Below, one piece after another: positions 4,295 through 40,566 of a stretch of 53,183 bases of DNA (the first letter of the stretch is position 1; every line of letters starts with the position of its first letter). The position numbers and the translations under genes were made by a program. The notes below the pieces were generated by a model. It ran no database searches. It was not told the origin of the DNA and saw only the letters and a list, made by a program, of their open reading frames with translations. The DNA is from a virus (taxonomy: Duplodnaviria; Caudoviricetes): positions 1 to 53,183 of the IMG/VR virus record IMGVR_UViG_3300020171_000036; one strand, written 5' to 3'.

Positions 4295-4320
4295 TATGGC
4301 TTAATCATTTCTTATTCCAA
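4295..4320 (-). repeat. junction repeat copy 1 (TTGGAATAAGAAATGATTAAGCCATA)
   Basis: Reverse complement of 4291-4320 is identical over 30 nt to 14574-14603. Confidence 0.9.
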
Positions 4321-4617: not shown

Positions 4618-4634
4618 CTTAATCATTTCTTATT
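4618..4634 (-). repeat. junction repeat copy 2 (AATAAGAAATGATTAAG)
   Basis: 17-nt core match; supplies the stop of ORF 4619-4804. Confidence 0.8.
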
Positions 4635-4804
4635 AGTTTTAATTCTTTGGGGTCTAAACAAAATACAGGTCCACGAAATCCGCAAGCGCACCAAACACCA
4701 TACGAATCCTGATACCCTTCAGGCCCGTGTAATTCATGGCCACAATCTTTTTTAACGTGCGAATATGGACATTTAAATCTCGAATAATCTACTAAATTTT
4801 TCAT
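4619..4804 (-). CDS. small Cys/His-rich protein
   Basis: CPY...CGH...CACG putative zinc binding; ends in the repeat. Confidence 0.6.
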   Translation of the reverse strand: MKNLVDYSRFKCPYSHVKKDCGHELHGPEGYQDSYGVWCACGFRGPVFCLDPKELKLIRND

Positions 4805-4836: not shown

Positions 4837-4858
4837 TGGCTTAATCATTTCTTATTCC
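4837..4858 (-). repeat. junction repeat copy 3 (GGAATAAGAAATGATTAAGCCA)
   Basis: 22-nt exact match; supplies the stop of ORF 4852-5037. Confidence 0.9.
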
Positions 4859-5037
4859 TGCTTATCTTCAAAGTCTTCAAGTGGACACCATTCAGGGAAA
4901 TCTTTAAGCAATCTAAGCGATTTGCTTTTATAAAAACCACAGGGGATAGGCATAAGACGACAACGTAAGTCTAAGCTGGTAAAACTCGCATGATGACATT
5001 CTCGACAGCTTTTAATAAACAATGGTAATATTTTCAT
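4852..5037 (-). CDS. small Cys-rich protein
   Basis: SCRECHH...C...FPEWCPL pattern typical of small phage proteins. Confidence 0.65.
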   Translation of the reverse strand: MKILPLFIKSCRECHHASFTSLDLRCRLMPIPCGFYKSKSLRLLKDFPEWCPLEDFEDKQE

Positions 5038-5050
5038 TTCTTATTCCAGT
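5034..5050 (-). repeat. junction repeat copy 4 (ACTGGAATAAGAAATGA)
   Basis: 17-nt match to 14342-14358; ATGA stop/start overlap. Confidence 0.8.
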
Positions 5051-5232: not shown

Positions 5233-5592
5233 TTATAAATACATTCTTTTTTCTTCTAACATCTTTAGATATTTTATAAACTTCTTAGATACATCTCTTT
5301 CAACAACATCTAAAATACCAGATATAGTTATATTACGCTTATTATCAAGAAATTGTTTTAATTCATAATCAGGTTTAAACCATTCTCCATGTTTACGAAG
5401 ATGCTTAAAATATATATGTAAAACATTCTCTAAATATAGACCACCTTGAACAACTTTTTTTATTGTTAATGGAACTGGCGAGCCAGTTTGCAATGTCTTT
5501 AGTCTGGATTTAGGATTTTTACTTTTGCCTATTTTAAATAATCCGTTTGGTGCTTGAATAAAATATATCTTGTTTTGTTTTGATTTACTCAT
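5233..5592 (-). CDS. GIY-YIG nuclease family protein (T5orf172/MUG113-like)
   Basis: IYFIQ...FKIGKSKNPKSRLKTLQTGSP...E..LH..F...GEWF. Confidence 0.88.
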   Translation of the reverse strand: MSKSKQNKIYFIQAPNGLFKIGKSKNPKSRLKTLQTGSPVPLTIKKVVQGGLYLENVLHIYFKHLRKHGEWFKPDYELKQFLDNKRNITISGILDVVERDVSKKFIKYLKMLEEKRMYL

Positions 5593-5628: not shown

Positions 5629-6483
5629 TCATATCCCCAAGTACACGGAACATACCACGTTGCAACTACAGTACGAAAGACATCTGACAGCTTCACCCTT
5701 ACGTTCTTCTATGTAGTCGCCCTTATTAGCTTCCATCCATGCCTGAGCTTCTACTTCGGTATTTAAGAGCCTGAATGCTGATTTACGATTCTTACCCATT
5801 ACCGCCCATTGGGTTACCTTCTCCCAGCGTTCGTCAAAGGAACAGGGCAATAAGGCATCGTCAGGCGTATTCTCTGCCTCCTGATGCAACCTTACCCTGT
5901 CTTCTATCCATGCCTGAGATTTTTCCAGCGACCATAACGGTATGTCCTGAACTACCACTTGGCATGATGGATAGTTGTGTTCTTTAGCTTTATGCTTAGA
6001 CCAATCACGCAGGAAGTTTACCACTTGCAGTTTTTCAGGACGTATGCCGTTCACTGTCATTAGATATGAGTTTATATTTAGCTGTTGTTCATGTTCAGGT
6101 TTAATTCCTGCAAGAACAGCCCATACACTTGTGATCTTGTAGTCAGATAGGATCTTTGGTATTTCTTCATACAGGTCTATTTTCCCCCCTATTCTCCAGC
6201 CCCAAACTTCTGTATAATATCTTTTTTCTTTAATGCAGTTCGGAGTTTTAATGCGCTCTAAAATATAATGAGTGTTTGAACCTATCAGCTTATAAATGTT
6301 ATCAGAAACGTCTTCATATATCTTATGCCCATGTCTTTTGGTTAACTGTACTATGCGAGGCGGAAGAACTAATGACGTGGTTGATATATTACTATCACCT
6401 GCTGTATAAGTGTCGTTCTCTACCACCGAAACTAAAGGCTCAGGTAAATTATAACGGTTTTTATATTGCATCTTTAATCTCAA
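5629..6483 (-). CDS. Cas4-like PD-(D/E)XK exonuclease
   Basis: G..TH..LE, GKIDLYE...DYKITS, QLNINSYL, C-terminal CxxxCxxxxxC cluster. Confidence 0.8.
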   Translation of the reverse strand: MRLKMQYKNRYNLPEPLVSVVENDTYTAGDSNISTTSLVLPPRIVQLTKRHGHKIYEDVSDNIYKLIGSNTHYILERIKTPNCIKEKRYYTEVWGWRIGGKIDLYEEIPKILSDYKITSVWAVLAGIKPEHEQQLNINSYLMTVNGIRPEKLQVVNFLRDWSKHKAKEHNYPSCQVVVQDIPLWSLEKSQAWIEDRVRLHQEAENTPDDALLPCSFDERWEKVTQWAVMGKNRKSAFRLLNTEVEAQAWMEANKGDYIEERKGEAVRCLSYCSCNVVCSVYLGI

Positions 6484-11905: not shown

Positions 11906-12637
11906 ATGGCTAAAGGACGCATGTTACAGAATCGTATTTCTAAGAGCCAAAAGTTAGCCAGTCTTTCTAATGACACAGTTCGCCTTCTTTATACCTGGCT
12001 ACTTTCACACCTCGACATTAACGGCAATTTTTATGCTGATCCTGTAATGGTTAACAATTTGGTTTTCACTCGGCTTGGACATTCTGTTAAAACAATTTCC
12101 AACTCACTTGATGAAATGGCAGAAAAAGGATTGATTGTAAGGTATAAGATTAATGGTGAGGTTTACCTTAACTACCCTGATTTTAACGAAAAACAACCTG
12201 CCTTAAACCCTGCGAGAGAAACAACTCCTGAAATTCCTAATATAACTCAAGAGTCAATCTTACATGACGCAAGCGTTACTCCTGCACAAATTAAGATAAG
12301 TAAAGATAATATATATAACGTCAAAAACAGCGTCAAAAAAAAAGAGCATGACGCAAACCTTGAACAGAGTTTTACAGAATTTTGGAATGCCTACCCCAGA
12401 AAGGTAAATAAAAAAGAAGCTAAGCAAAAATGGTTTAAAGCTAAATTACCTAACCTTTCCATTATTTTAAAAGCTCTTGCAATACAAAAACAATCCGAGT
12501 CATGGCAAAAAGACGGTGGTAAATATATACCACATCCAACCACATGGTTGAATCAAGAACGTTGGAACGATGAAATAACTATTGAGAGAATAGAACCAAA
12601 CGGATATCAGCCACCATTGGAGGAAATCTTAGCATAA
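11906..12637 (+). CDS. phage replication initiator
   Basis: N-terminal wHTH-like region; FTEFWNAYPRKVNKKEA and YIPHPTTWLNQERWNDE; upstream of DnaB. Confidence 0.85.
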   Translation: MAKGRMLQNRISKSQKLASLSNDTVRLLYTWLLSHLDINGNFYADPVMVNNLVFTRLGHSVKTISNSLDEMAEKGLIVRYKINGEVYLNYPDFNEKQPALNPARETTPEIPNITQESILHDASVTPAQIKISKDNIYNVKNSVKKKEHDANLEQSFTEFWNAYPRKVNKKEAKQKWFKAKLPNLSIILKALAIQKQSESWQKDGGKYIPHPTTWLNQERWNDEITIERIEPNGYQPPLEEILA

Positions 12638-13995
12638 TGGATGAATTATACAAAGTTCCTCCGCAGAACCTACCCTATGAAGAAAGTATTATCGCTGGAT
12701 GTTTGTTGTTTCCCGATGTTTGCGAAGAAACCTTAGACATTCTAACACCAGAAGACTTTTATAAAACAGCTCATCAAAAAATATACAAAGCCATTCTCGA
12801 TTTAAAATTCAAAAAAGAACCTGTTGATTTATTAACTGTTTCTGAAAAATTAAAATCACTTAAAACGCTTGAGGATTGTGGGGGAGCTTATTATTTAACT
12901 AAATTAACAGATGAATGCCCAGTCCCAACACATACTGGGCATACCATTCAAAAAATAAGAGAATGCGCTGTTTTAAGAAAAACCATTGAGATTTGCAGTA
13001 ACACAATTCAAAATTGTTTTAATCTTGAGGATGAACCAGAGAAGGTTATAGACCAATTCCAAACTGATGCTTTAAAAATAGATATAAAAGTTAAAACTGA
13101 GAGTTATATAAGTTTAAAGCAACTTATTATGGAAGGCGAGGATCGGCACGAGCTTATTTATAATAATAAATCAAACATAACTGGTATGCCTGCCGGATTT
13201 AAAGATATTGATGCTGTTACTTGTGGCTTTCAAAAGGGTGATTTAATTATAATAGCTGCGCGGCCATCCATGGGAAAAAGTGCTTTGATGCGGGCAATGA
13301 GCATTAATATGGCTAAAGCGGGTTTTTGTAATTTAATAATTTCCTTGGAAATGTCGAAAGAACAGCTTTGCGATACTATTATTTCAAGCGAAAGCGGAAT
13401 AAATTCAGTTAAATTTAGAAATGGATTTTTTTCAAAAGAAGATTGGATAATTAAAACAGAAGCATCAAGCCGATTGTATGAACTAAATAGTTTTCTTATA
13501 GATAAAGATTGTTTTAGGTTGTTAGATATTTGCCGGATAGCCAGAAGGTTAAAAAAGAAAGAAGATATAGGGGCTGTTTTTATTGATTATTTACAATTAA
13601 TTGAAGGGGATCAGTCAAAGAAAAAGAATTATGAAATTGGCGAAATATCCAGACGATTGAAAATATTAGCAAAAGAGCTTGAAATACCAATAATTTTATT
13701 AAGCCAGTTAAATCGTAAATGCGAAGAAAGAACTGACAAAAGACCACTACTTGCAGATTTGAGGGATTCGGGTTCGATAGAGCAAGATGCCGATATTATA
13801 ATGTTTATATATAGGCATGAAGAATATTTAAGAAAAAAATACCATGAAGACGGCTCAAAAACAGATGAAATGGAAAAATGGGAGGGTAGGGCGGAGCTGA
13901 ATATAGCTAAGCAGAGGATGGGGCCAACACGTCGAGTGAATCTGACGTGGTTAAAAAAGATTGTAACATTTAAGGATGCAACACATGACACATGA
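12637..13995 (+). CDS. dnaB: replicative DNA helicase
   Basis: AARPSMGKS, SLEMS, IDYLQL, LSQLNR, DLRDSGSIEQDAD, KQRMGP. Confidence 0.97.
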   Translation: MDELYKVPPQNLPYEESIIAGCLLFPDVCEETLDILTPEDFYKTAHQKIYKAILDLKFKKEPVDLLTVSEKLKSLKTLEDCGGAYYLTKLTDECPVPTHTGHTIQKIRECAVLRKTIEICSNTIQNCFNLEDEPEKVIDQFQTDALKIDIKVKTESYISLKQLIMEGEDRHELIYNNKSNITGMPAGFKDIDAVTCGFQKGDLIIIAARPSMGKSALMRAMSINMAKAGFCNLIISLEMSKEQLCDTIISSESGINSVKFRNGFFSKEDWIIKTEASSRLYELNSFLIDKDCFRLLDICRIARRLKKKEDIGAVFIDYLQLIEGDQSKKKNYEIGEISRRLKILAKELEIPIILLSQLNRKCEERTDKRPLLADLRDSGSIEQDADIIMFIYRHEEYLRKKYHEDGSKTDEMEKWEGRAELNIAKQRMGPTRRVNLTWLKKIVTFKDATHDT

Positions 13996-14341
13996 AAAGC
14001 CCATAAGAGAAACAGATAAAGACTATCTTGCATACATAAAATCTCAGCCATGCTTGGTATTGAATAGCGAATGTATCGGGGATATAGTAGCACATCATAC
14101 ACTTAGTCGTGGGTCAGGTGGATCTGATTATGGGGCGGTTTGTTTGTGTATGAACCACCACAATAACGTGCATTCTCTGGGCAAAAAAACCTTTCAAGAA
14201 CTATATAATATTAATTTTAATAAGGAAATCATACGGTTATTAGTTGGCTATATAAAAAAGATAAAGTGCAATAAAGCAAATAAAACGAGAAAAGCCATAG
14301 AAAAAGCCCGGTCCGATTCTGAAAGCTGGTCCCGGATATAA
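13976..14341 (+). CDS. DUF968/HNH-like nuclease
   Basis: YLAYIKSQPCLV...AHHT...SDY..V.LC..HH..VH..G..TF. Confidence 0.7.
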   Translation: MQHMTHEKPIRETDKDYLAYIKSQPCLVLNSECIGDIVAHHTLSRGSGGSDYGAVCLCMNHHNNVHSLGKKTFQELYNINFNKEIIRLLVGYIKKIKCNKANKTRKAIEKARSDSESWSRI

Positions 14342-14603
14342 ACTGGAATAAGAAATGATTAAGCCATAGGAGTTGAGGAGAAACAGTCGTCCTAAAAAAT
14401 CGGACAACTGGAATAAGAAATAATATGGAGGAGTGGCGGAATTGGCAAGAAGTTATTTTGATAAATATGCTTGTCATTGATAGACGTATCGGAATTTAAA
14501 GCTGAAGCAGCCCTCGACTTATAATCGAGTTTTCCTAAAGATGCAGGTTTGAATCCAGCCTCCTCCAACCAAATTGGAATAAGAAATGATTAAGCCATAC
14601 TAT
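14342..14603 (+). repeat. junction repeat copies 5-7 (14342-14368, 14406-14421, 14574-14603)
   Basis: TGGAATAAGAAAT(GATTAAGCCATA) three times, flanking a short spacer and the tRNA-like element. Confidence 0.9.
14426..14571 (+). ncRNA. expanded tRNA-like RNA (UAU anticodon-like loop)
   Basis: Acceptor TGGAGGAG/CTCCTCCA + ACCA, D-arm-like GGCGGAATTGG, T-arm GCAGG-TTTGAAT-CCAGC, hairpin CTCGA-CTTATAA-TCGAG. Confidence 0.65.
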
Positions 14604-15728
14604 GAAACAGCAGAAGGCAGTATTTACTGCGGTGATGCTCTGGAGGTATTAAAGAGTATGGAGGATAAAAGTTGCCAGTCGGTGATTACAAGTCCTCCAT
14701 ACTGGTGATGAGGCTTACGAGACTATGAAACTGCTACATGGGAAGGTGGGGATAGTGATTGCAAACATACAATAAGTAGTGGAGATACTGACCCAAAAAA
14801 GATTGGGCAGGAACGAGTTTTTCGTGGCAATAGAAGTGTATGTAGGAATTGCGGGGCTAAAAGAATAGACAATCAACTCGGTCTTGAAAAAACTCCTGAA
14901 GAATATGTCGAAAAAATGGTTGAGGTGTTTAGTGAGGTTAGAAGAGTATTGAAAGATAATGGGACTGTTTGGCTGAATTTGGGGGATAGCTACTTGAGTG
15001 ATGGTAAAAAAGAAATGTCGGTAAAAATAGGGAGTGGAATACAAGCAGATCAACGGGCAAAGAATGAAAACTATAAAGATACAACACCGTCAAGAAATGC
15101 TCGATATTATAAGAATACTAATTTAAAAAGAAAAGACCTTGTAGGCATTCCCTGGCGAGTAGCCTTTGCCCTTCAAGCTGACGGCTGGTATCTCAGGCAG
15201 GACATAATCTGGGCAAAACCGAATCCGATGCCCGAAAGCGTAACAGACAGATGCACTAAAGCACATGAGTATATATTTTTACTGAGCAAGAATGCTAAGT
15301 ATTATTATAATGCTGAGGCGATAAAAGAGCCATTCGTAGACAATAGAATGGGAAATCCTATGGGTGGGGGGCAATATGCGACAGATGCCTTTAAATTATT
15401 AGGAACTCAACATGGTCTCGCAAAGGGCAAATGGAATGAAGATGGAGAAATAATTGGCAGGAATAAACGCTCGGTCTGGACAGTAACCACCAAGCCATAT
15501 AAGGAAGCGCATTTCGCAACATTTCCAATAGCTCTTATAGAACCATGTATATTAGCAGGAACAGATAAAGGAGATACAATACTCGACCCGTTCTTTGGAG
15601 CAGGCACGACAGGCGTGGCAGCTTATAAGCATGACAGGAAGTTTGTAGGTATCGAATTAAATCCTGAGTATGTAGAGATAGCGGCCAAGCGTATAGAAGC
15701 AGAAGCAAGCCAGTTAAAGCTGTTTTAA
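14586..15728 (+). CDS. N4/N6 DNA methyltransferase (beta class) interrupted by in-frame TGA-TGA; recoded gene or pseudogene
   Basis: MIKPYYE..GDALEVL..VITSPPYW**GLRDY...in frame with ORF 14916-15728 (WLNLGDSY, IIWAKPNPMPES, HFATFP, DPFFGAGTT). Confidence 0.8.
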
Positions 15729-15830: not shown

Positions 15831-16127
15831 ATGGCTAAAAAATCACTTTTTACAACCAACTCACAAATTCGGTCAGCGCTTCGCAGATTGTTCCTTCGTT
15901 CCAGAGAAAGAGCAAAGCGACTCAAGGACGATAAATATACTTGCCAGAAGTGCGGCGTAAAACAGAGCAAGGCTAAGGGTAAAGAGGTAAAGGTCGAAGT
16001 GCATCACAAAATCGGCGTAGAAAACTGGTCAGCTCTTTATGATGCAGTCAGGAAATACTTACTTTGCGATCCTGACCATCTTGAAACACTGTGTAAAAAA
16101 TGTCATAAAAGCGAGGAAAAGCCATGA
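15831..16127 (+). CDS. HNH endonuclease-like protein
   Basis: YTCQKCG...VEVHHK...LETLCKKCH. Confidence 0.8.
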   Translation: MAKKSLFTTNSQIRSALRRLFLRSRERAKRLKDDKYTCQKCGVKQSKAKGKEVKVEVHHKIGVENWSALYDAVRKYLLCDPDHLETLCKKCHKSEEKP

Positions 16128-18580: not shown

Positions 18581-18642
18581 TTTTGCATTGTTTGTGTTTT
18601 TTTCTATTGACATATACTGCATATTGTGCAAGAGTATATTGG

Positions 18643-19323
18643 ATGGAAGAAGACACTAAAAAATGTATAAAAGATTATAATAAAGCCTATTATGAAGCTA
18701 ATAAAGAAAAACTATTAGCTCGTCATAACACATGGAATAATGCAAATAAAGAAAGAGTAAAAAAGAACGAGAAAGCGTGGAGAGAGGCTAATAAAGATAA
18801 AATTAAAATTGTGCGTGCTCTTTACCTTGAAAGAAATAAAGCTAAAATAAGAATTAAGAGAAAAATTTACTATGAAGCCAATAAAAAGAGAATACTCGCC
18901 AAGGCGAAAGCTTGGGTGGCATCTAATAAAAAGAAGGCTGCAATTTATTATAGTGCATGGCATAAACAAAAACGTAGAATAGATATTAAGTTCAGATTGG
19001 GTCGGAATATGTCTAAGGCTGTAAGTGAGTCATTAAGGGAGAATAGAAATGGTCGTTCCTGGGAAACCATCATTGGATATACACTTAACGATCTTAGAAA
19101 ACACCTTGAAAAGCAATTCGTTAATGGTATGACGTGGGAGAATTATGGAGAATGGCATATTGAACATAAAATACCAATTAGTGTTCATAACTTTACGAAA
19201 GTGGGACACCAAGACTTTAAGAAATGTTGGGCGTTAAGTAACCTACAACCAATGTGGGCGAAAGAAAACTTATCAAAAGGCACAAAGATAGATAAGCATT
19301 TTCAACCCTCGTTATTAATATAA
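18643..19323 (+). CDS. HNH endonuclease with basic helical N-terminus
   Basis: HLEKQF..GMTWENYGEWHIEHKIP...CWALSNLQPMWAKENLSKG. Confidence 0.85.
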   Translation: MEEDTKKCIKDYNKAYYEANKEKLLARHNTWNNANKERVKKNEKAWREANKDKIKIVRALYLERNKAKIRIKRKIYYEANKKRILAKAKAWVASNKKKAAIYYSAWHKQKRRIDIKFRLGRNMSKAVSESLRENRNGRSWETIIGYTLNDLRKHLEKQFVNGMTWENYGEWHIEHKIPISVHNFTKVGHQDFKKCWALSNLQPMWAKENLSKGTKIDKHFQPSLLI

Positions 19324-26996: not shown

Positions 26997-29900
26997 ATGG
27001 CATCATCTAATCTATCACACGAAGAAATAGAGCGTCTTGTAGAAATTGAAATTAAAGATGCCGAAGAATATTCCGGTATTCGTTCAGGTAAGCGTGAAAC
27101 AAACTGGGATCGGTATTATGGCCGTAAGCTCGGTAACGAAGTTAAAGGCCGGTCTCAGTTTATGACACGAGAGGTGCTTGATACTATTGAATGGATGATG
27201 CCGTATTTTATTCGCACCTTTGCTTCAGGCGACCCCAAGATTGAGATAGAAATTAAAGGTCAGGAGTCCTGGGTGGGTAAGGCAATGATGGACAGGATAC
27301 AACTTGACCTCGGAGAAGGCACGCCAAACCTGTTTCTTATATTTTATCAATGGTTTAAAGACTCTCTGGTATCAGACACAGCTTTTACAAAACTGGCATG
27401 GGATTTAGACCAGGAAAATATATCTGTAGAATTTGACGAACTTCCGGCAGCACGATTACAACAGCTTGCCACAGACCCCGATGTAACTATTATTAATGCT
27501 GGTGAGATGGATATCGGTCAGGGGGGGATTTCGTTTAAGAATATCTCAGTCAAGATAAAGAAAACAATCAAGGATTCAATCTATGCTGAGAATGTACCTC
27601 ACTGGGAATTTCTTGCAAGCTCAAAGTCAAGAAGCGTTAATGACGAACACGGAAAAGGACATAAGACCGAAGTAACAGTAGATTATATAAAAAGAATCAA
27701 CAGGGCACGAACCGAAGGAAAGAAACCATATTTTAAAAACATAGACAGGCTTGAGTCGGGAGAAAGTAAATCAGAAATATCCGAAGGTGAAAAAACAAGT
27801 TACATGGGTGAAGATTCTCCTCTCCAGACAGACACGGAAAAGGGAGCTAAATCAGCGGTAACATTTATTGAATGGCATACAAGACTCGATGTAAACGATG
27901 ATGGTTACCTTGAGAATGTTATCTGTTTTATGGGGAATGGACACCTTTTAAGATGGGAAGAAAACAAAGATGAATTTATTCCGTTCTCTGCGCTTTCTCC
28001 TATAATTGACTGCTATAAGTTTTTTGGCATTTCGTATGCAGACCTTTTAGTAGAAATACAAAATCTCAAAACTATGCTATTCAGAAGAATACTTGATAAC
28101 TTTGATTTTCAGAACTCCGGCAGGTGGTTAAGAGACCCCAACAGTATGATTGACACCTATGCTCTTTTAAATAACATTCCCGGAAGTGTAATTACTGGAA
28201 AAGTAGATGGACTTAAAGACATCACTCCAGCGCCGTTCAACCCTGGGAATTTGACTATATTAGAATACGTTGATACGATAAAAGAGAACAGAACTGGAAT
28301 AACTCGTTATAATCAAGGGACAAGTGCTGATACACTTAATAAGCGTATAGATATTAACACTCCAGTCCCTATGGCAGATGGGACGTGGAGTTTTTTAAGC
28401 GAGATACAAGATAGAGATATGATTCTTGGCGGCGATGGCACTCCGACTATGGTTGTAAAAGCTCACGAAATAGCGCTGAGCGACAATGCCTATAAGGTTG
28501 AATTTAATGGCAGTGGGGCTACTAAAATAGATGAAATAGTTGCCGATGCCGAACATTTATGGGGTGTTTATATAGGAAGGCATTGGAAATATAAAATTTT
28601 AAACACCAAGCAAATTTTTAAGTTATTAAAAAGTGGTGAGAGAGTAAGTGTTCCTAAACCTAAACATATTGCCTCTGGACAAGAAAACGATTTGCCTATT
28701 AATCCTTATGTTTTTGGCGTTTGGTTGGGAGATGGTAGTAAGTGGGATACTGTAATAACTACGGCGGATGAAGGAGTTATACGTCGAGTAAAAGAACGGT
28801 GTGAGGAAGAAGGATGGCAAGTAAAAAAAGATGCCCATCCGCAAGGCATTTCTTACCGTATTACCAGTTGTTTTGAAAAGAAGAGAACTAAGGACAATCG
28901 TTTCTTTGCTCAACAAGATAGTCTTTTCCATAGATTATCTTCTCTGGGTGTATTCCGTAGAACAGGGGGGGATCCTCATATTCCTGCTGTTTATTTTAGA
29001 TCGTCTTATGGGCAAAGGCTGGAATTATTAAGAGGTTTAATGGACTCAGATGGTTTTTTTAGTCAGGGGATTTGTTTTTTTGGTAATTCTAATTATCGGT
29101 TAATTGAAGATATATCAAAACTTATTAGAAGTTTAAGCGGAGTTCCTAATATTAGAAAGGTTAGGACAAAAGGTAAAAAGTGGGTTAATGGGAAGAATTG
29201 TAACACGAAAGATTTTTGGTTAGTTGGATTTAATTTAAATGATTGTCCTTTTGCCCTTGAACGAAAGGCTGAGGTTTGGAGGCCTACACGCAAAAAAGCT
29301 TACCGCATAGTTGCTGTAAAAAAGGTTGAACCAAGATTAATGCGATGCCTGACAGTTGATAACCCTGATGGGTTATGGTTGATTGGGGAGCATTATATTG
29401 CCACGCATAATACCGCAAGAGGCATTATACAAATTCAGAATGCTGCCATGCAAAGGCTTGAATTAATTGGAAGAATATTCGCAGAAATAGGACTTAAAGA
29501 CTTTTATCGCAAGTGTGTTTTGTTATATCAAAAATATATGAGAAAACCATTTACTGCAAAGGTATTAGGGCAGGATAAAGAAATTATGCCAGAAATGATA
29601 CAGGGTAGGGTAATTACAAGGGTGAATATGGGTGTGGCTGCTTCAGTAGGTGCAGAAGAAGCCGGTAAAATAGAACACATGCTCGGAGTATTATTTAAGC
29701 TCAACGAATATTTCCCTGGACTTTTAACTCCTGAAAAGATACACAACCTTTCAAAGAGATACATCACTTCGCTTGGTTTTAAAAACGCAGACGACTTTAT
29801 AGAGGATGCTCAAAGTTATTTAGAGAAAGCCGAACAGATGCAACAGCAAAATGCTGAGATGCAAAAGATGATGGTCGAGTTACAGCAGAAATTCAAAGAG

Positions 29901-30137
29901 ATGGAGCTTCAGATTAAAGGACAGAGTGTTCAGGTTCAGGCTCAAAAAGCGCAGGCGGATGCGACCATATCTCAGGCTGAATTAAAACAGGAAAGCATTT
30001 TAGCAGGACAGGAACTTAAGCAAGATAAAGAAATAGCAATGGCAGAGATAGCGCAGAAAGAACGAGACTCAAAAAGAGACCATGCGCTTGGATTATTAAA
30101 GATGGCAACCGAAGGACAGCGACCGACAGGAGTATAA
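26997..30137 (+). CDS. portal protein (P22-like) containing an intein
   Basis: YYG..LGNEVKGRSQ, PF..L.P.....FFG.S..D, TGITRYNQG..ADTLNK|TARG, Q-rich C-terminal coil. Confidence 0.9.
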   Translation: MASSNLSHEEIERLVEIEIKDAEEYSGIRSGKRETNWDRYYGRKLGNEVKGRSQFMTREVLDTIEWMMPYFIRTFASGDPKIEIEIKGQESWVGKAMMDRIQLDLGEGTPNLFLIFYQWFKDSLVSDTAFTKLAWDLDQENISVEFDELPAARLQQLATDPDVTIINAGEMDIGQGGISFKNISVKIKKTIKDSIYAENVPHWEFLASSKSRSVNDEHGKGHKTEVTVDYIKRINRARTEGKKPYFKNIDRLESGESKSEISEGEKTSYMGEDSPLQTDTEKGAKSAVTFIEWHTRLDVNDDGYLENVICFMGNGHLLRWEENKDEFIPFSALSPIIDCYKFFGISYADLLVEIQNLKTMLFRRILDNFDFQNSGRWLRDPNSMIDTYALLNNIPGSVITGKVDGLKDITPAPFNPGNLTILEYVDTIKENRTGITRYNQGTSADTLNKRIDINTPVPMADGTWSFLSEIQDRDMILGGDGTPTMVVKAHEIALSDNAYKVEFNGSGATKIDEIVADAEHLWGVYIGRHWKYKILNTKQIFKLLKSGERVSVPKPKHIASGQENDLPINPYVFGVWLGDGSKWDTVITTADEGVIRRVKERCEEEGWQVKKDAHPQGISYRITSCFEKKRTKDNRFFAQQDSLFHRLSSLGVFRRTGGDPHIPAVYFRSSYGQRLELLRGLMDSDGFFSQGICFFGNSNYRLIEDISKLIRSLSGVPNIRKVRTKGKKWVNGKNCNTKDFWLVGFNLNDCPFALERKAEVWRPTRKKAYRIVAVKKVEPRLMRCLTVDNPDGLWLIGEHYIATHNTARGIIQIQNAAMQRLELIGRIFAEIGLKDFYRKCVLLYQKYMRKPFTAKVLGQDKEIMPEMIQGRVITRVNMGVAASVGAEEAGKIEHMLGVLFKLNEYFPGLLTPEKIHNLSKRYITSLGFKNADDFIEDAQSYLEKAEQMQQQNAEMQKMMVELQQKFKEMELQIKGQSVQVQAQKAQADATISQAELKQESILAGQELKQDKEIAMAEIAQKERDSKRDHALGLLKMATEGQRPTGV
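28344..29411 (+). mobile_element. class-3-type intein with LAGLIDADG endonuclease in portal (356 aa)
   Basis: Starts RIDINTPVP; ADAEHLW; PYVFGVWLGDG and LLRGLMDSDG; MRCLTVD; IATHN followed by Thr. Confidence 0.9.
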
Positions 30138-40089: not shown

Positions 40090-40566
40090 ATGGCTGATAA
40101 CATTCCAATCGGATTTTGCCAATGTGGTTGTGGGAGAAAGACTAATCTTGCCACTAAAACGTGTGCTAAGTTTGATCGCAAAAAAGGCGAGCCAGTTAGA
40201 TTTATTTGGGGGCATCACAGGCGAAATAAAAAACATACTAAGGAATCAATTTTAAAAATGACTGGCGAGAATCATCATATGTGGAACGGTGGACAGAAAA
40301 AGCATAATGGTGGATATGTTTTAATTTACAATCCATTACATCCGACCGCAAAAAAATATCCTTATGTTTTAGAACATGTCTTGATTGCCGAGAAAGTTCT
40401 TGGAAAATATATACCACCAAAAGCTATCGTTCATCATATAAATGAAGACAAAAAAGATAATATACCATGTAATTTGGTAATTTGTGAGGATAGAGCTTAT
40501 CATAATTTTATACATATGAGGATGAGAAAAATGAAGAAAGAAATGGAGGCCAAGCATGGCAGATGA
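40090..40566 (+). CDS. HNH homing endonuclease
   Basis: CQCGCG, EHVLIAEKVLGK...VHHINEDKKDN...NL. Confidence 0.88.
   Translation: MADNIPIGFCQCGCGRKTNLATKTCAKFDRKKGEPVRFIWGHHRRNKKHTKESILKMTGENHHMWNGGQKKHNGGYVLIYNPLHPTAKKYPYVLEHVLIAEKVLGKYIPPKAIVHHINEDKKDNIPCNLVICEDRAYHNFIHMRMRKMKKEMEAKHGR

Follow-up and report, generated by a model that had tools for sequence, protein, structure and literature searches.

An oversized tRNA-like element, apparently derived from a leucine tRNA gene, in the replication-gene block of a groundwater phage

The window analysed here is the whole of a 53,183-nucleotide (nt) virus record in IMG/VR (IMGVR_UViG_3300020171_000036), which has an estimated completeness of 74% and belongs to a groundwater phage. 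Within its block of replication genes, positions 14426 to 14571 are occupied by a tRNA-like element that is present in a single copy in the record and all neighbours of which are encoded on the + strand. An earlier note, made from the sequence alone, had described here an acceptor with an encoded ACCA end, a T arm with one mismatch, a split leucine-type D arm and a hairpin with the anticodon-like triplet UAU, and every one of these parts was found as described. The element is composed as follows (bp, base pairs).

14426..14571, + strand: the whole element, an oversized tRNA-like gene of 146 nt, apparently tRNA-Leu-derived (from sequence and alignment)
14426..14433, + strand: 5' strand of the acceptor, TGGAGGAG, which pairs with CTCCTCCA at 14560-14567 in 8 of 8 Watson-Crick pairs
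14434..14445, + strand: 5' half of a leucine-type (class II) D arm, TGGCGGAATTGG, with U8, G9, A14 and G18 G19 (from identity with the tRNA-Leu of locus L129 and a MAFFT alignment)
14446..14480, + strand: A+T-rich insert of 35 nt in the D loop, a 7+5-bp hairpin with the base GGCAAG/CTTGTC (from the fold)
14481..14487, + strand: 3' half of the leucine-type D arm, TAGACGT (from the sequence)
14488..14512, + strand: 25 extra nt at tRNA position 26 (from the sequence)
14513..14529, + strand: anticodon-arm-like hairpin CTCGA-CTTATAA-TCGAG with UAU at 14520-14522 (pair probability 0.89)
14530..14542, + strand: variable region of 13 nt, poorly paired, which aligns with the long variable arms of class II tRNA-Leu
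14543..14559, + strand: T arm, GCAGG-TTTGAAT-CCAGC, with one A.A mismatch (from the sequence and the Rfam alignment)

The acceptor helix has a mean pair probability of 0.90. Its 5' strand is followed directly by TG and then by GCGGAATTGG, and its 3' strand by a discriminator A at 14568 and CCA at 14569-14571. The invariant nucleotides of tRNA are in place (U8, G10, A14, G18 G19, G53, T54 and A58) with the exception of C56, which is replaced by U in the T arm. The element thus keeps the 'top half' of a tRNA, namely the acceptor helix, the CCA end, the T arm and the elbow nucleotides of the D loop. The extra sequence amounts to about 60 nt, of which 35 nt are in the D loop and 25 nt at position 26. 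The hairpin of the D-loop insert takes G18 G19 into its base and has a mean pair probability of 0.92. The piece at position 26 holds the sequence ATCGGAA, a second anticodon-loop-like sequence (TTTAAAG) and a 4-bp mini-hairpin, GCTG-AAG-CAGC at 14501-14511, which has a pair probability of 0.63 and is aligned by Rfam as the D arm. The UAU hairpin is a perfect 5-bp, 7-nt anticodon arm with U33 and A37. The earlier note had set this hairpin on an extended arm formed by ATCGGAA and TTCC-TAAA-GAT; such an outer pairing is possible, but it is weak, with a mean pair probability of 0.27. Three minus-strand open reading frames (ORFs) run over the element and have no PHROG match at E up to 0.1.

The description of the element as tRNA-like yet overlong agrees with the results of the tRNA callers. 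ARAGORN reports no tRNA or transfer-messenger RNA (tmRNA) gene in the window, and none in the region when the intron option and lowered thresholds are used. Rfam gives nothing at gathering score for the element; in permissive mode, a partial tRNA match is obtained at 14500-14559 (model positions 9-63, E 0.44) with 18.5 bits against a cut-off of 29. By either standard, an ARAGORN call or at least 29 bits with Rfam RF00005, the element is not a canonical tRNA. Compared to the cloverleaf of about 72-95 nt, it is 146 nt long and has the A.A mismatch in the T stem, with the invariants present except C56. Other classes were also considered. The 8/5 acceptor and T-stem count of tRNA-Sec is matched by the sequence, yet UAU stands in the anticodon, the D stem is 3-4 bp long and there is little pairing in the variable region. 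The element is not a tmRNA, as ARAGORN makes no such call, the acceptor lacks a G.U pair and Rfam finds nothing. It is not an intron-bearing tRNA either: no group I or group II intron family was found by Rfam, the inserts are just 35 and 25 nt long, and the boundary of the D-loop insert, read by eye, lies inside an uninterrupted helix with no bulge-helix-bulge motif.

The resemblance is to class II tRNA-Leu, of which the element has the split leucine D arm, the 13-nt variable region and the discriminator A, although its anticodon, UAU, is not that of leucine. In a MAFFT alignment it is collinear with the tRNA-Leu(tag) of L129 and the T4 tRNA-Leu over the acceptor, the D arm, the anticodon arm, the variable region and the T arm, and a single gap of about 59 nt interrupts the alignment. 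All 18 nt of the two D-arm pieces, taken together, agree with the D arm of the L129 tRNA-Leu, a gene called by ARAGORN. The anticodon-like loop CTTATAA is one base away from CTTAAAA of the T4 tRNA-Leu(UAA). Because of this collinearity and of the one-base difference in the loop, the simplest parentage would be a single gene of the class II tRNA-Leu(UAA) type with about 60 extra nt, and a chimera of a Leu and an Ile tRNA, a form of the two-tRNA chimera that had been proposed earlier, is unnecessary. The weak matches of the 3' half (14542-14575) in blastn searches (E 0.7-2) point the same way as the alignment to tRNA genes, all 12 of the 12 best rows listed falling under annotated phage tRNA genes; blastn of the 5' half gave nothing useful.

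The probability of such a structure arising by chance was assessed by a scan for the top half, in which a T-arm motif is located first and a 7-nt acceptor strand with its complement 20-170 nt upstream is then required. The scan finds 2 sites in the window, compared to a mean of 0.043 in 300 dinucleotide shuffles, 12 of which had at least one site. This excess, together with the identity of the D arm, puts the derivation of the element from a tRNA beyond reasonable doubt. The second site, at about 5978-6118 on the + strand, is a T-arm-like motif with a complementary 7-nt strand 117 nt upstream; it lies within an exonuclease gene (phrog_2139), on the opposite strand, lacks a D arm and was judged a chance occurrence. 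Deletion scans are less informative. Single deletions yield 173 ARAGORN calls among 6974 variants, of which 164 are tRNA-Ile(tat), and double deletions yield 2352 calls among 21168 variants, including 803 of tRNA-Stop(tta) and 575 of tRNA-Leu(taa). Shuffling of the whole element abolishes the calls in 15 of 15 scans. When only the interior is shuffled (positions 11-117, the acceptor and T arm being kept), calls are still obtained in 15 of 20 single-deletion and 16 of 20 double-deletion scans, and the native call counts are reached in 2 of 20 and 1 of 20, respectively. Since interior shuffles still give calls, the deletion scans are weak evidence that mostly reflects the intact top half, and the idea of a tRNA nested inside a tRNA, to which these scans had given rise, was downgraded.

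The element is not an assembly chimera, because independent Logan contigs cover it. In run X1, which may be the source sample, contigs match 14415-14556 at every position, and a 252-nt contig of run X3, which comes from another groundwater study, covers 14418-14573 with 1 mismatch in 156 nt. The remaining 91 nt of the X3 contig are unlike the window downstream of the element. The module is therefore real DNA that has another flank in X3, and at least two different downstream sequences adjoin almost unchanged copies of it. In run X4 one variant, the only one listed within the element (14448 A>G), converts an A-U pair to G.U and so keeps the pair. In the four groundwater runs contigs branch at 14449/14453 and at 14542. 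At 14453, contigs of X1 and X2 branch into a continuation that is unlike the window up to its last six letters, which are those of the 3' base of the insert hairpin (14471-14476). The branch hints at an allele with another hairpin tip; it is 30 letters long and was not counted as evidence.

The surroundings of the element, and the more distant features of the window that bear on them, are the following.

12637-13995, + strand: DnaB helicase; a replication initiator is a further neighbour on the + strand
13976..14341, + strand: upstream neighbour, an HNH/DUF968-like endonuclease of 121 amino acids (PHROG HNH endonuclease family, E 4.7e-07; Pfam DUF968)
14340..14368, + strand: junction repeat, copy 1, starting at the stop codon of the HNH-like gene
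14384..14410, + strand: 9-bp hairpin (one mismatched pair) within the 37-nt unit that separates copies 1 and 2 of the repeat
14406..14424, + strand: junction repeat, copy 2, which is truncated and stops 1 nt short of the element
14571..14599, + strand: junction repeat, copy 3, starting at the last base of the element and containing the methylase start codon at 14586
14586..15728, + strand: downstream neighbour, an N4/N6 DNA methyltransferase (phrog_67, E 1.9e-82 on the read-through translation)
4307-4319, ~4620-4640, 4847-4859 and 5036-5048, - strand: further junction-repeat sites
5233-5592, - strand: homing-endonuclease-type gene, T5orf172/GIY-YIG-like
15831-16127: homing-endonuclease-type gene, HNH
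18583-19323: homing-endonuclease-type gene, HNH/EndoVII-like
40090-40566: homing-endonuclease-type gene, HNH_3

Between the end of the element and the methylase start codon there are 14 nt, and the sole terminator-like site in 13800-15000 is the 5-bp hairpin of the element itself. The capsid protein of the phage is at most 35.5% identical to that of any INPHARED phage, and the HNH-like protein has no INPHARED match. The five homing-endonuclease-type genes in 53 kb, the HNH/DUF968-like one included, represent an unusually high load of mobile DNA. The portal ORF (26997-30137, 1046 amino acids) has portal-family matches at residues 5-448 and 808-1027 and matches to other PHROG families at residues ~423-818, which suggests that it carries an inserted domain, possibly an intein.

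The direct repeats near the element comprise a 19-nt sequence in three copies (at 14341, 14406 and 14572) and a 29-nt sequence in two (at 14340 and 14571). The bracketing of the element by junction repeats, as first described, is real in that the element is a discrete module between copies, but the repeat is found genome-wide and is not specific to the element. The repeat core TGGAATAAGAAAT has 14 occurrences at up to 2 mismatches, compared to 4.53 expected, and none of 100 shuffles reaches 14; exact copies of the core are located on the minus strand at 4307 and 5036, and the copies always lie between small genes. On both arms of the phage, the whole repeat of about 29 nt, TGGAATAAGAAATGATTAAGCCATACTAT, is found again in the gaps between small genes. 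Two more copies, also between small genes, are present in another IMG/VR record, G006 (L210, ~500-530 and 690-730), and in four groundwater runs the repeat bins have 20-100 times the depth of the flanking contig. The junction repeat is thus a widespread intergenic sequence, and the element fills one cassette slot between two of its copies. The repeat could be a promoter-like element, a site of gene-cassette recombination or a homing target. As for a promoter, the likeness of the repeat to TTGGAA-N18-TACTAT scores 8 of 12, below the threshold of the scan, which gave 6 sites with 3.2 expected. A match to Rfam NsiR4 on the minus strand at the hairpin unit 14384..14410 is at chance level. Contig joints that skip 179-217 nt between repeat copies were considered as a possible empty site and dismissed; their sides are shorter than 35 nt at 80% likeness, and they were taken for other copies of the repeat.

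The methylase gene downstream of the element has a peculiarity of its own, located at 14655-14714. Over 380 codons its frame is interrupted only by TGA TGA at 14706-14711, immediately behind the SPPYW codons, where the window reads TGG TGA TGA. The closest methylase relative, L130 (76%), reads TGG TAG TGG at the same spot (region 197-256) and is otherwise open for 403 codons. In 160 related loci, 151 of 152 motif rows have the form SPPY[WYF]-x-LR[DN]Y and lack the two extra codons; L130 is the exception, and skipping of 6 nt would restore the canonical motif in the genes of both the window and L130. The synonymous difference between these two genes is 0.13 (2 of 15 sites) over the 26 codons that lead up to the stop versus 0.66-0.70 elsewhere, and their nucleotide identity is 76/78 before the insert, 3/6 within it and 30/39 after it. 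In the first 13 codons after the stops, the synonymous difference (pS) is 0.70 and the nonsynonymous one (pN) is 0.07; judged by this disparity, the codons after the stops are under in-frame protein constraint. The 60 nt that end at TGG fold to -25.0 kcal/mol in the window and -26.1 kcal/mol in L130, whereas the same region of 112 distinct uninterrupted homologues has a mean of -8.55 kcal/mol (standard deviation 4.28) and a minimum of -19.1 kcal/mol. A 12-bp hairpin with an inner stem that ends at TGG is conserved in both the window and L130. One X4 contig is without the 6 nt.

Two explanations of the methylase stop codons were discarded. Reassignment of the stop codon is contradicted by the ORFs, few of which are extended when TGA is taken as sense, while TGA ends 14 of the 46 long ones. 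A role of the tRNA-like element as a suppressor does not fit either, as L130 has TAG at the site and no tRNA, and the loops of the element hold UAU and UAA/UUA, not UCA/CUA; no link between the methylase stop site and the element was found. Recoding of some kind appears somewhat probable from the pattern of substitution and the conserved hairpin. Matched codons that flank a stop are the design of synthetic 'stop-hop' constructs. A 6-nt stop-hop specifically, of which the site would be a candidate natural case, may be entertained with some reserve, and, given just two genes, readthrough, a split gene or recent recombination are possible as well. In-frame stop hopping, according to a 2016 review (PMC5009743), has been shown solely with synthetic constructs, and no natural occurrences were known; among the publications listed by a search for later reports there was none of natural stop hopping. 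The bypass of the T4 gene 60 type, as outlined in the abstract of a preprint (bioRxiv 10.1101/2022.08.31.505936), involves RNA structures, a stop at the take-off site and an origin linked to mobile elements. The methylase stop site may matter more than the tRNA-like element. In another methylase relative (L132, 66%), positions 1-300 of the contig contain an HNH endonuclease frame directly upstream of the C-terminal part of the methylase and in another frame, and no N-terminal methylase part bearing SPPY is visible on the contig. Mobile endonuclease genes thus seem to target the methylase gene.

The interpretation of the tRNA-like element starts from what is directly observed: its anatomy, the collinearity with tRNA-Leu, the same-strand context, the lack of a tRNA call and the near-identical presence in a second study. 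By analogy with T4 RNA C, it is tentatively proposed, as the best of the readings, that the element encodes a non-decoding, tRNA-Leu-derived RNA carried on an optional cassette. It would be co-transcribed with the DnaB, HNH-like and methylase genes, and its top half would be recognised by RNase P at the 5' end and by the 3' tRNA processing machinery at the CCA end. Processing would yield a stable RNA of about 146 nt that would be unable to decode, because the outer-pairing fold puts the anticodon hairpin on a branched arm that exceeds the normal length by about 7 bp. Cutting at these ends would also part the upstream message from the methylase message, leaving the latter with a 14-nt leader. 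The released RNA would be a non-decoding look-alike of tRNA, as is T4 RNA C, and a tRNA-directed host enzyme or a defence nuclease might be its binding partner. The extra parts of the element are well paired (0.92, 0.63 and 0.89), and random decay, on modelled pairing, would not be expected to leave the inserted stems in such a state.

Several observations weigh against a functional RNA of this kind. The minimum-free-energy (MFE) fold of the element has -39.2 kcal/mol and z = -2.04, and 6 of 200 shuffles fold equally well. This fold retains the acceptor, the D-loop hairpin and the UAU hairpin, but in the thermodynamic ensemble the D stem and the T arm have pair probabilities of only 0.001 and 0.003, and a 13-bp closing rod is favoured in their place, in which the 5' strand of the D arm pairs with the 3' strand of the T arm (GGCGGA to TCC.GCC). 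A cloverleaf-like fold has -33.1 kcal/mol, compared to the -39.2 kcal/mol of the MFE fold. The preference is not decisive, as energy models often misfold real tRNAs; the weakened T stem, with its mismatch and U56, is a real defect. No RNA ligase, CCA-adding or tRNA-modifying enzyme was recognised among the 64 ORFs. The element is also an orphan in the collections searched. The 321-nt locus 14300-14620 has no match in INPHARED by blastn, exact patterns of the 3' and 5' ends each have 0 matches in IMG/VR, and a looser pattern based on the loop retrieves there just an array of tRNA-Leu and tRNA-Thr. A GTDB pattern has 7 matches, none of which is a tRNA or similar past the pattern. The top-half scan of 223 fetched loci (1.37 Mb) gives 0 oversized candidates and 21 of normal size. 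Five records, those of four capsid relatives and G006, have no tRNA at all, and L130, in spite of its related methylase, has no element in the ~100 nt upstream of this gene or elsewhere on its 3.9-kb contig. The near-identity between samples may only mean that they contain the same phage strain. No RNA run is listed for 14200-15000, and the four runs compared with the window all consist of DNA contigs; on expression this is not evidence either way.

The relatives were collected by protein anchors, as 80 loci from 295 methylase relatives in IMG/VR, 80 from 493 in metagenomes, 44 capsid loci and 2 DnaB loci; the element is absent from these loci, where the best blastn-short matches are 13-15 nt long with E of at least 0.14, and the records of the five capsid relatives have no match to it. 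Isolation of this kind is what would be expected of a dead relic, a phage tRNA-Leu gene that was damaged by unequal recombination or insertion at a junction prone to recombination and is now neutral DNA with no function as RNA. The T-stem mismatch, U56, the lack of an ARAGORN or Rfam tRNA call and a thermodynamically preferred fold other than the cloverleaf are all consistent with such a history, as are the location in a region rich in mobile DNA, with five homing-endonuclease-type genes and junction repeats on both sides, and the lack of any other tRNA in the phage or in the five examined records. The ease with which random interiors pass the deletion scans when the top half is intact (15/20 and 16/20) has the same implication. 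A relic would not, however, be expected to keep 8 acceptor pairs, the CCA end and nearly all invariant tertiary nucleotides, or to have its extra sequence in the form of clean hairpins, and the element was kept in a second study with 1 mismatch in 156 nt beside another downstream flank. The earlier note had held that the element should be regarded as a decayed pseudogene if neither a homologue conserving its extra arms nor a transcript was found. The outcome comes close to this, as the searches gave no database homologue of the element and no RNA run that holds it; the dead relic therefore stays a strong rival of the non-decoding RNA and is nearly as likely.

The other explanations ascribe a function to the element in translation or in cis. 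An expanded tRNA that reads AUA, or UUA after processing, would serve codons heavily used by this A+T-rich phage: in ORFs of at least 90 amino acids, 484 of 1043 isoleucine codons are ATA, and leucine is most often encoded by TTA. The perfect 5-bp, 7-nt UAU arm with U33 and A37, and the 164 of 6974 single deletions that ARAGORN takes for tRNA-Ile(tat), are in keeping with such a decoder. The call counts are, however, matched by 2 of 20 interior shuffles, and in the outer-pairing fold the anticodon hairpin is displaced by the 7-bp branched arm. A working decoder is disfavoured, and must be considered unlikely, because there are about 60 extra nt in the D region with no visible route for their removal: no group I intron, bulge-helix-bulge or ligase gene was found, and no bacterial route is known that removes such extra nucleotides. 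It is quite unlikely that the element is a cis-acting leader of the methylase, a structured 5' element which would control translation or stability and might interact with the hairpin of the recoding site. Its end is 14 nt from the start codon at 14586, and a 7-bp helix, TGGAGGA/TCCTCCA, is common to the acceptor (14426-14432 with 14561-14567) and the mRNA hairpin (14659-14665 with 14693-14699). This shared helix may be a coincidence, since GGAGG also follows other junction copies, as a ribosome-binding motif, and the SPPY codons by themselves require TCCTCCA. The leader is disfavoured because L130 has the same hairpin and an in-frame stop yet no tRNA-like element. Finally, an RNA trimmed to its encoded CCA and charged by leucyl-tRNA synthetase (LeuRS) might read AUA, which is the commonest isoleucine codon of the phage, and insert leucine there, or might act as bait for LeuRS or for an anticodon-directed host nuclease on a scaffold with exchangeable inserts. 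This notion, which derives from the retention of the leucine-type D arm and the discriminator A and from the fact that bacterial LeuRS does not read the anticodon, is highly improbable.

Among known systems, three groups of RNAs invite comparison with the element. tRNA-Sec and the allo-tRNAs, with acceptor and T stems of 8/5, 8/4 and 9/3 (PMC5389517), resemble it in having an acceptor of more than 7 bp and in having been found by similar searches of phages and metagenomes. They are cloverleaf-shaped and about 90-100 nt long, and the element has neither UCA nor a 6-bp D stem nor a well-paired long variable arm. The class II tRNA-Leu genes, represented by the L129 tRNA-Leu(tag) and the T4 tRNA-Leu, share with it the collinear acceptor, U8-G9, the D arm, the T arm and the discriminator A. 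The element differs from them in its ~59-60 extra nt, in UAU in place of UAA/UAG, in an acceptor of 8 bp if the CCA is the real end, in the poorly paired variable arm, in the T-stem mismatch and in U56.

The third system, and the closest to the element, is T4 RNA C (species 1 RNA, rnaC; AF158101, 70908-71046), which is accompanied by species 2 RNA (rnaD). Passages of two publications (PMC3014915, PMC9697503) state its role to be unknown. The role of this class of RNA has been open for decades, and a single orphan element cannot settle it. Should the RNA be made, the element would add to the few oversized phage look-alikes of tRNA one that is based on leucine tRNA and comes from an uncultured groundwater phage, and it would point to a possible route by which such genes originate, namely a tRNA gene hit by insertions at a recombination-prone junction. 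Alignment of the element with rnaC and rnaD reveals no meaningful sequence similarity. T4 RNA C is a demonstrated transcript with a fold of z = -4.57, whereas the element is known from DNA alone and has z = -2.04. T4 RNA C is part of a cluster of eight tRNA genes and adjoins these genes and the homing-endonuclease gene segB, and the element, in a phage with no tRNA genes, adjoins an HNH-like endonuclease gene. Both are encoded by phages and are of similar length, 139 nt for T4 RNA C, which is annotated as a small stable RNA, and 146 nt for the element. In its architecture rnaC resembles the element: its T arm, which is canonical, lies close to the 3' end, its closing stem is acceptor-like, and long extra hairpins stand where the normal D and anticodon region would be. 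Genes of the T4 RNA C type are phage genes, about 120-170 nt long, that combine the top half of a tRNA, an acceptor-like stem and a T arm, with central hairpins foreign to tRNAs, and the element has all of these features.

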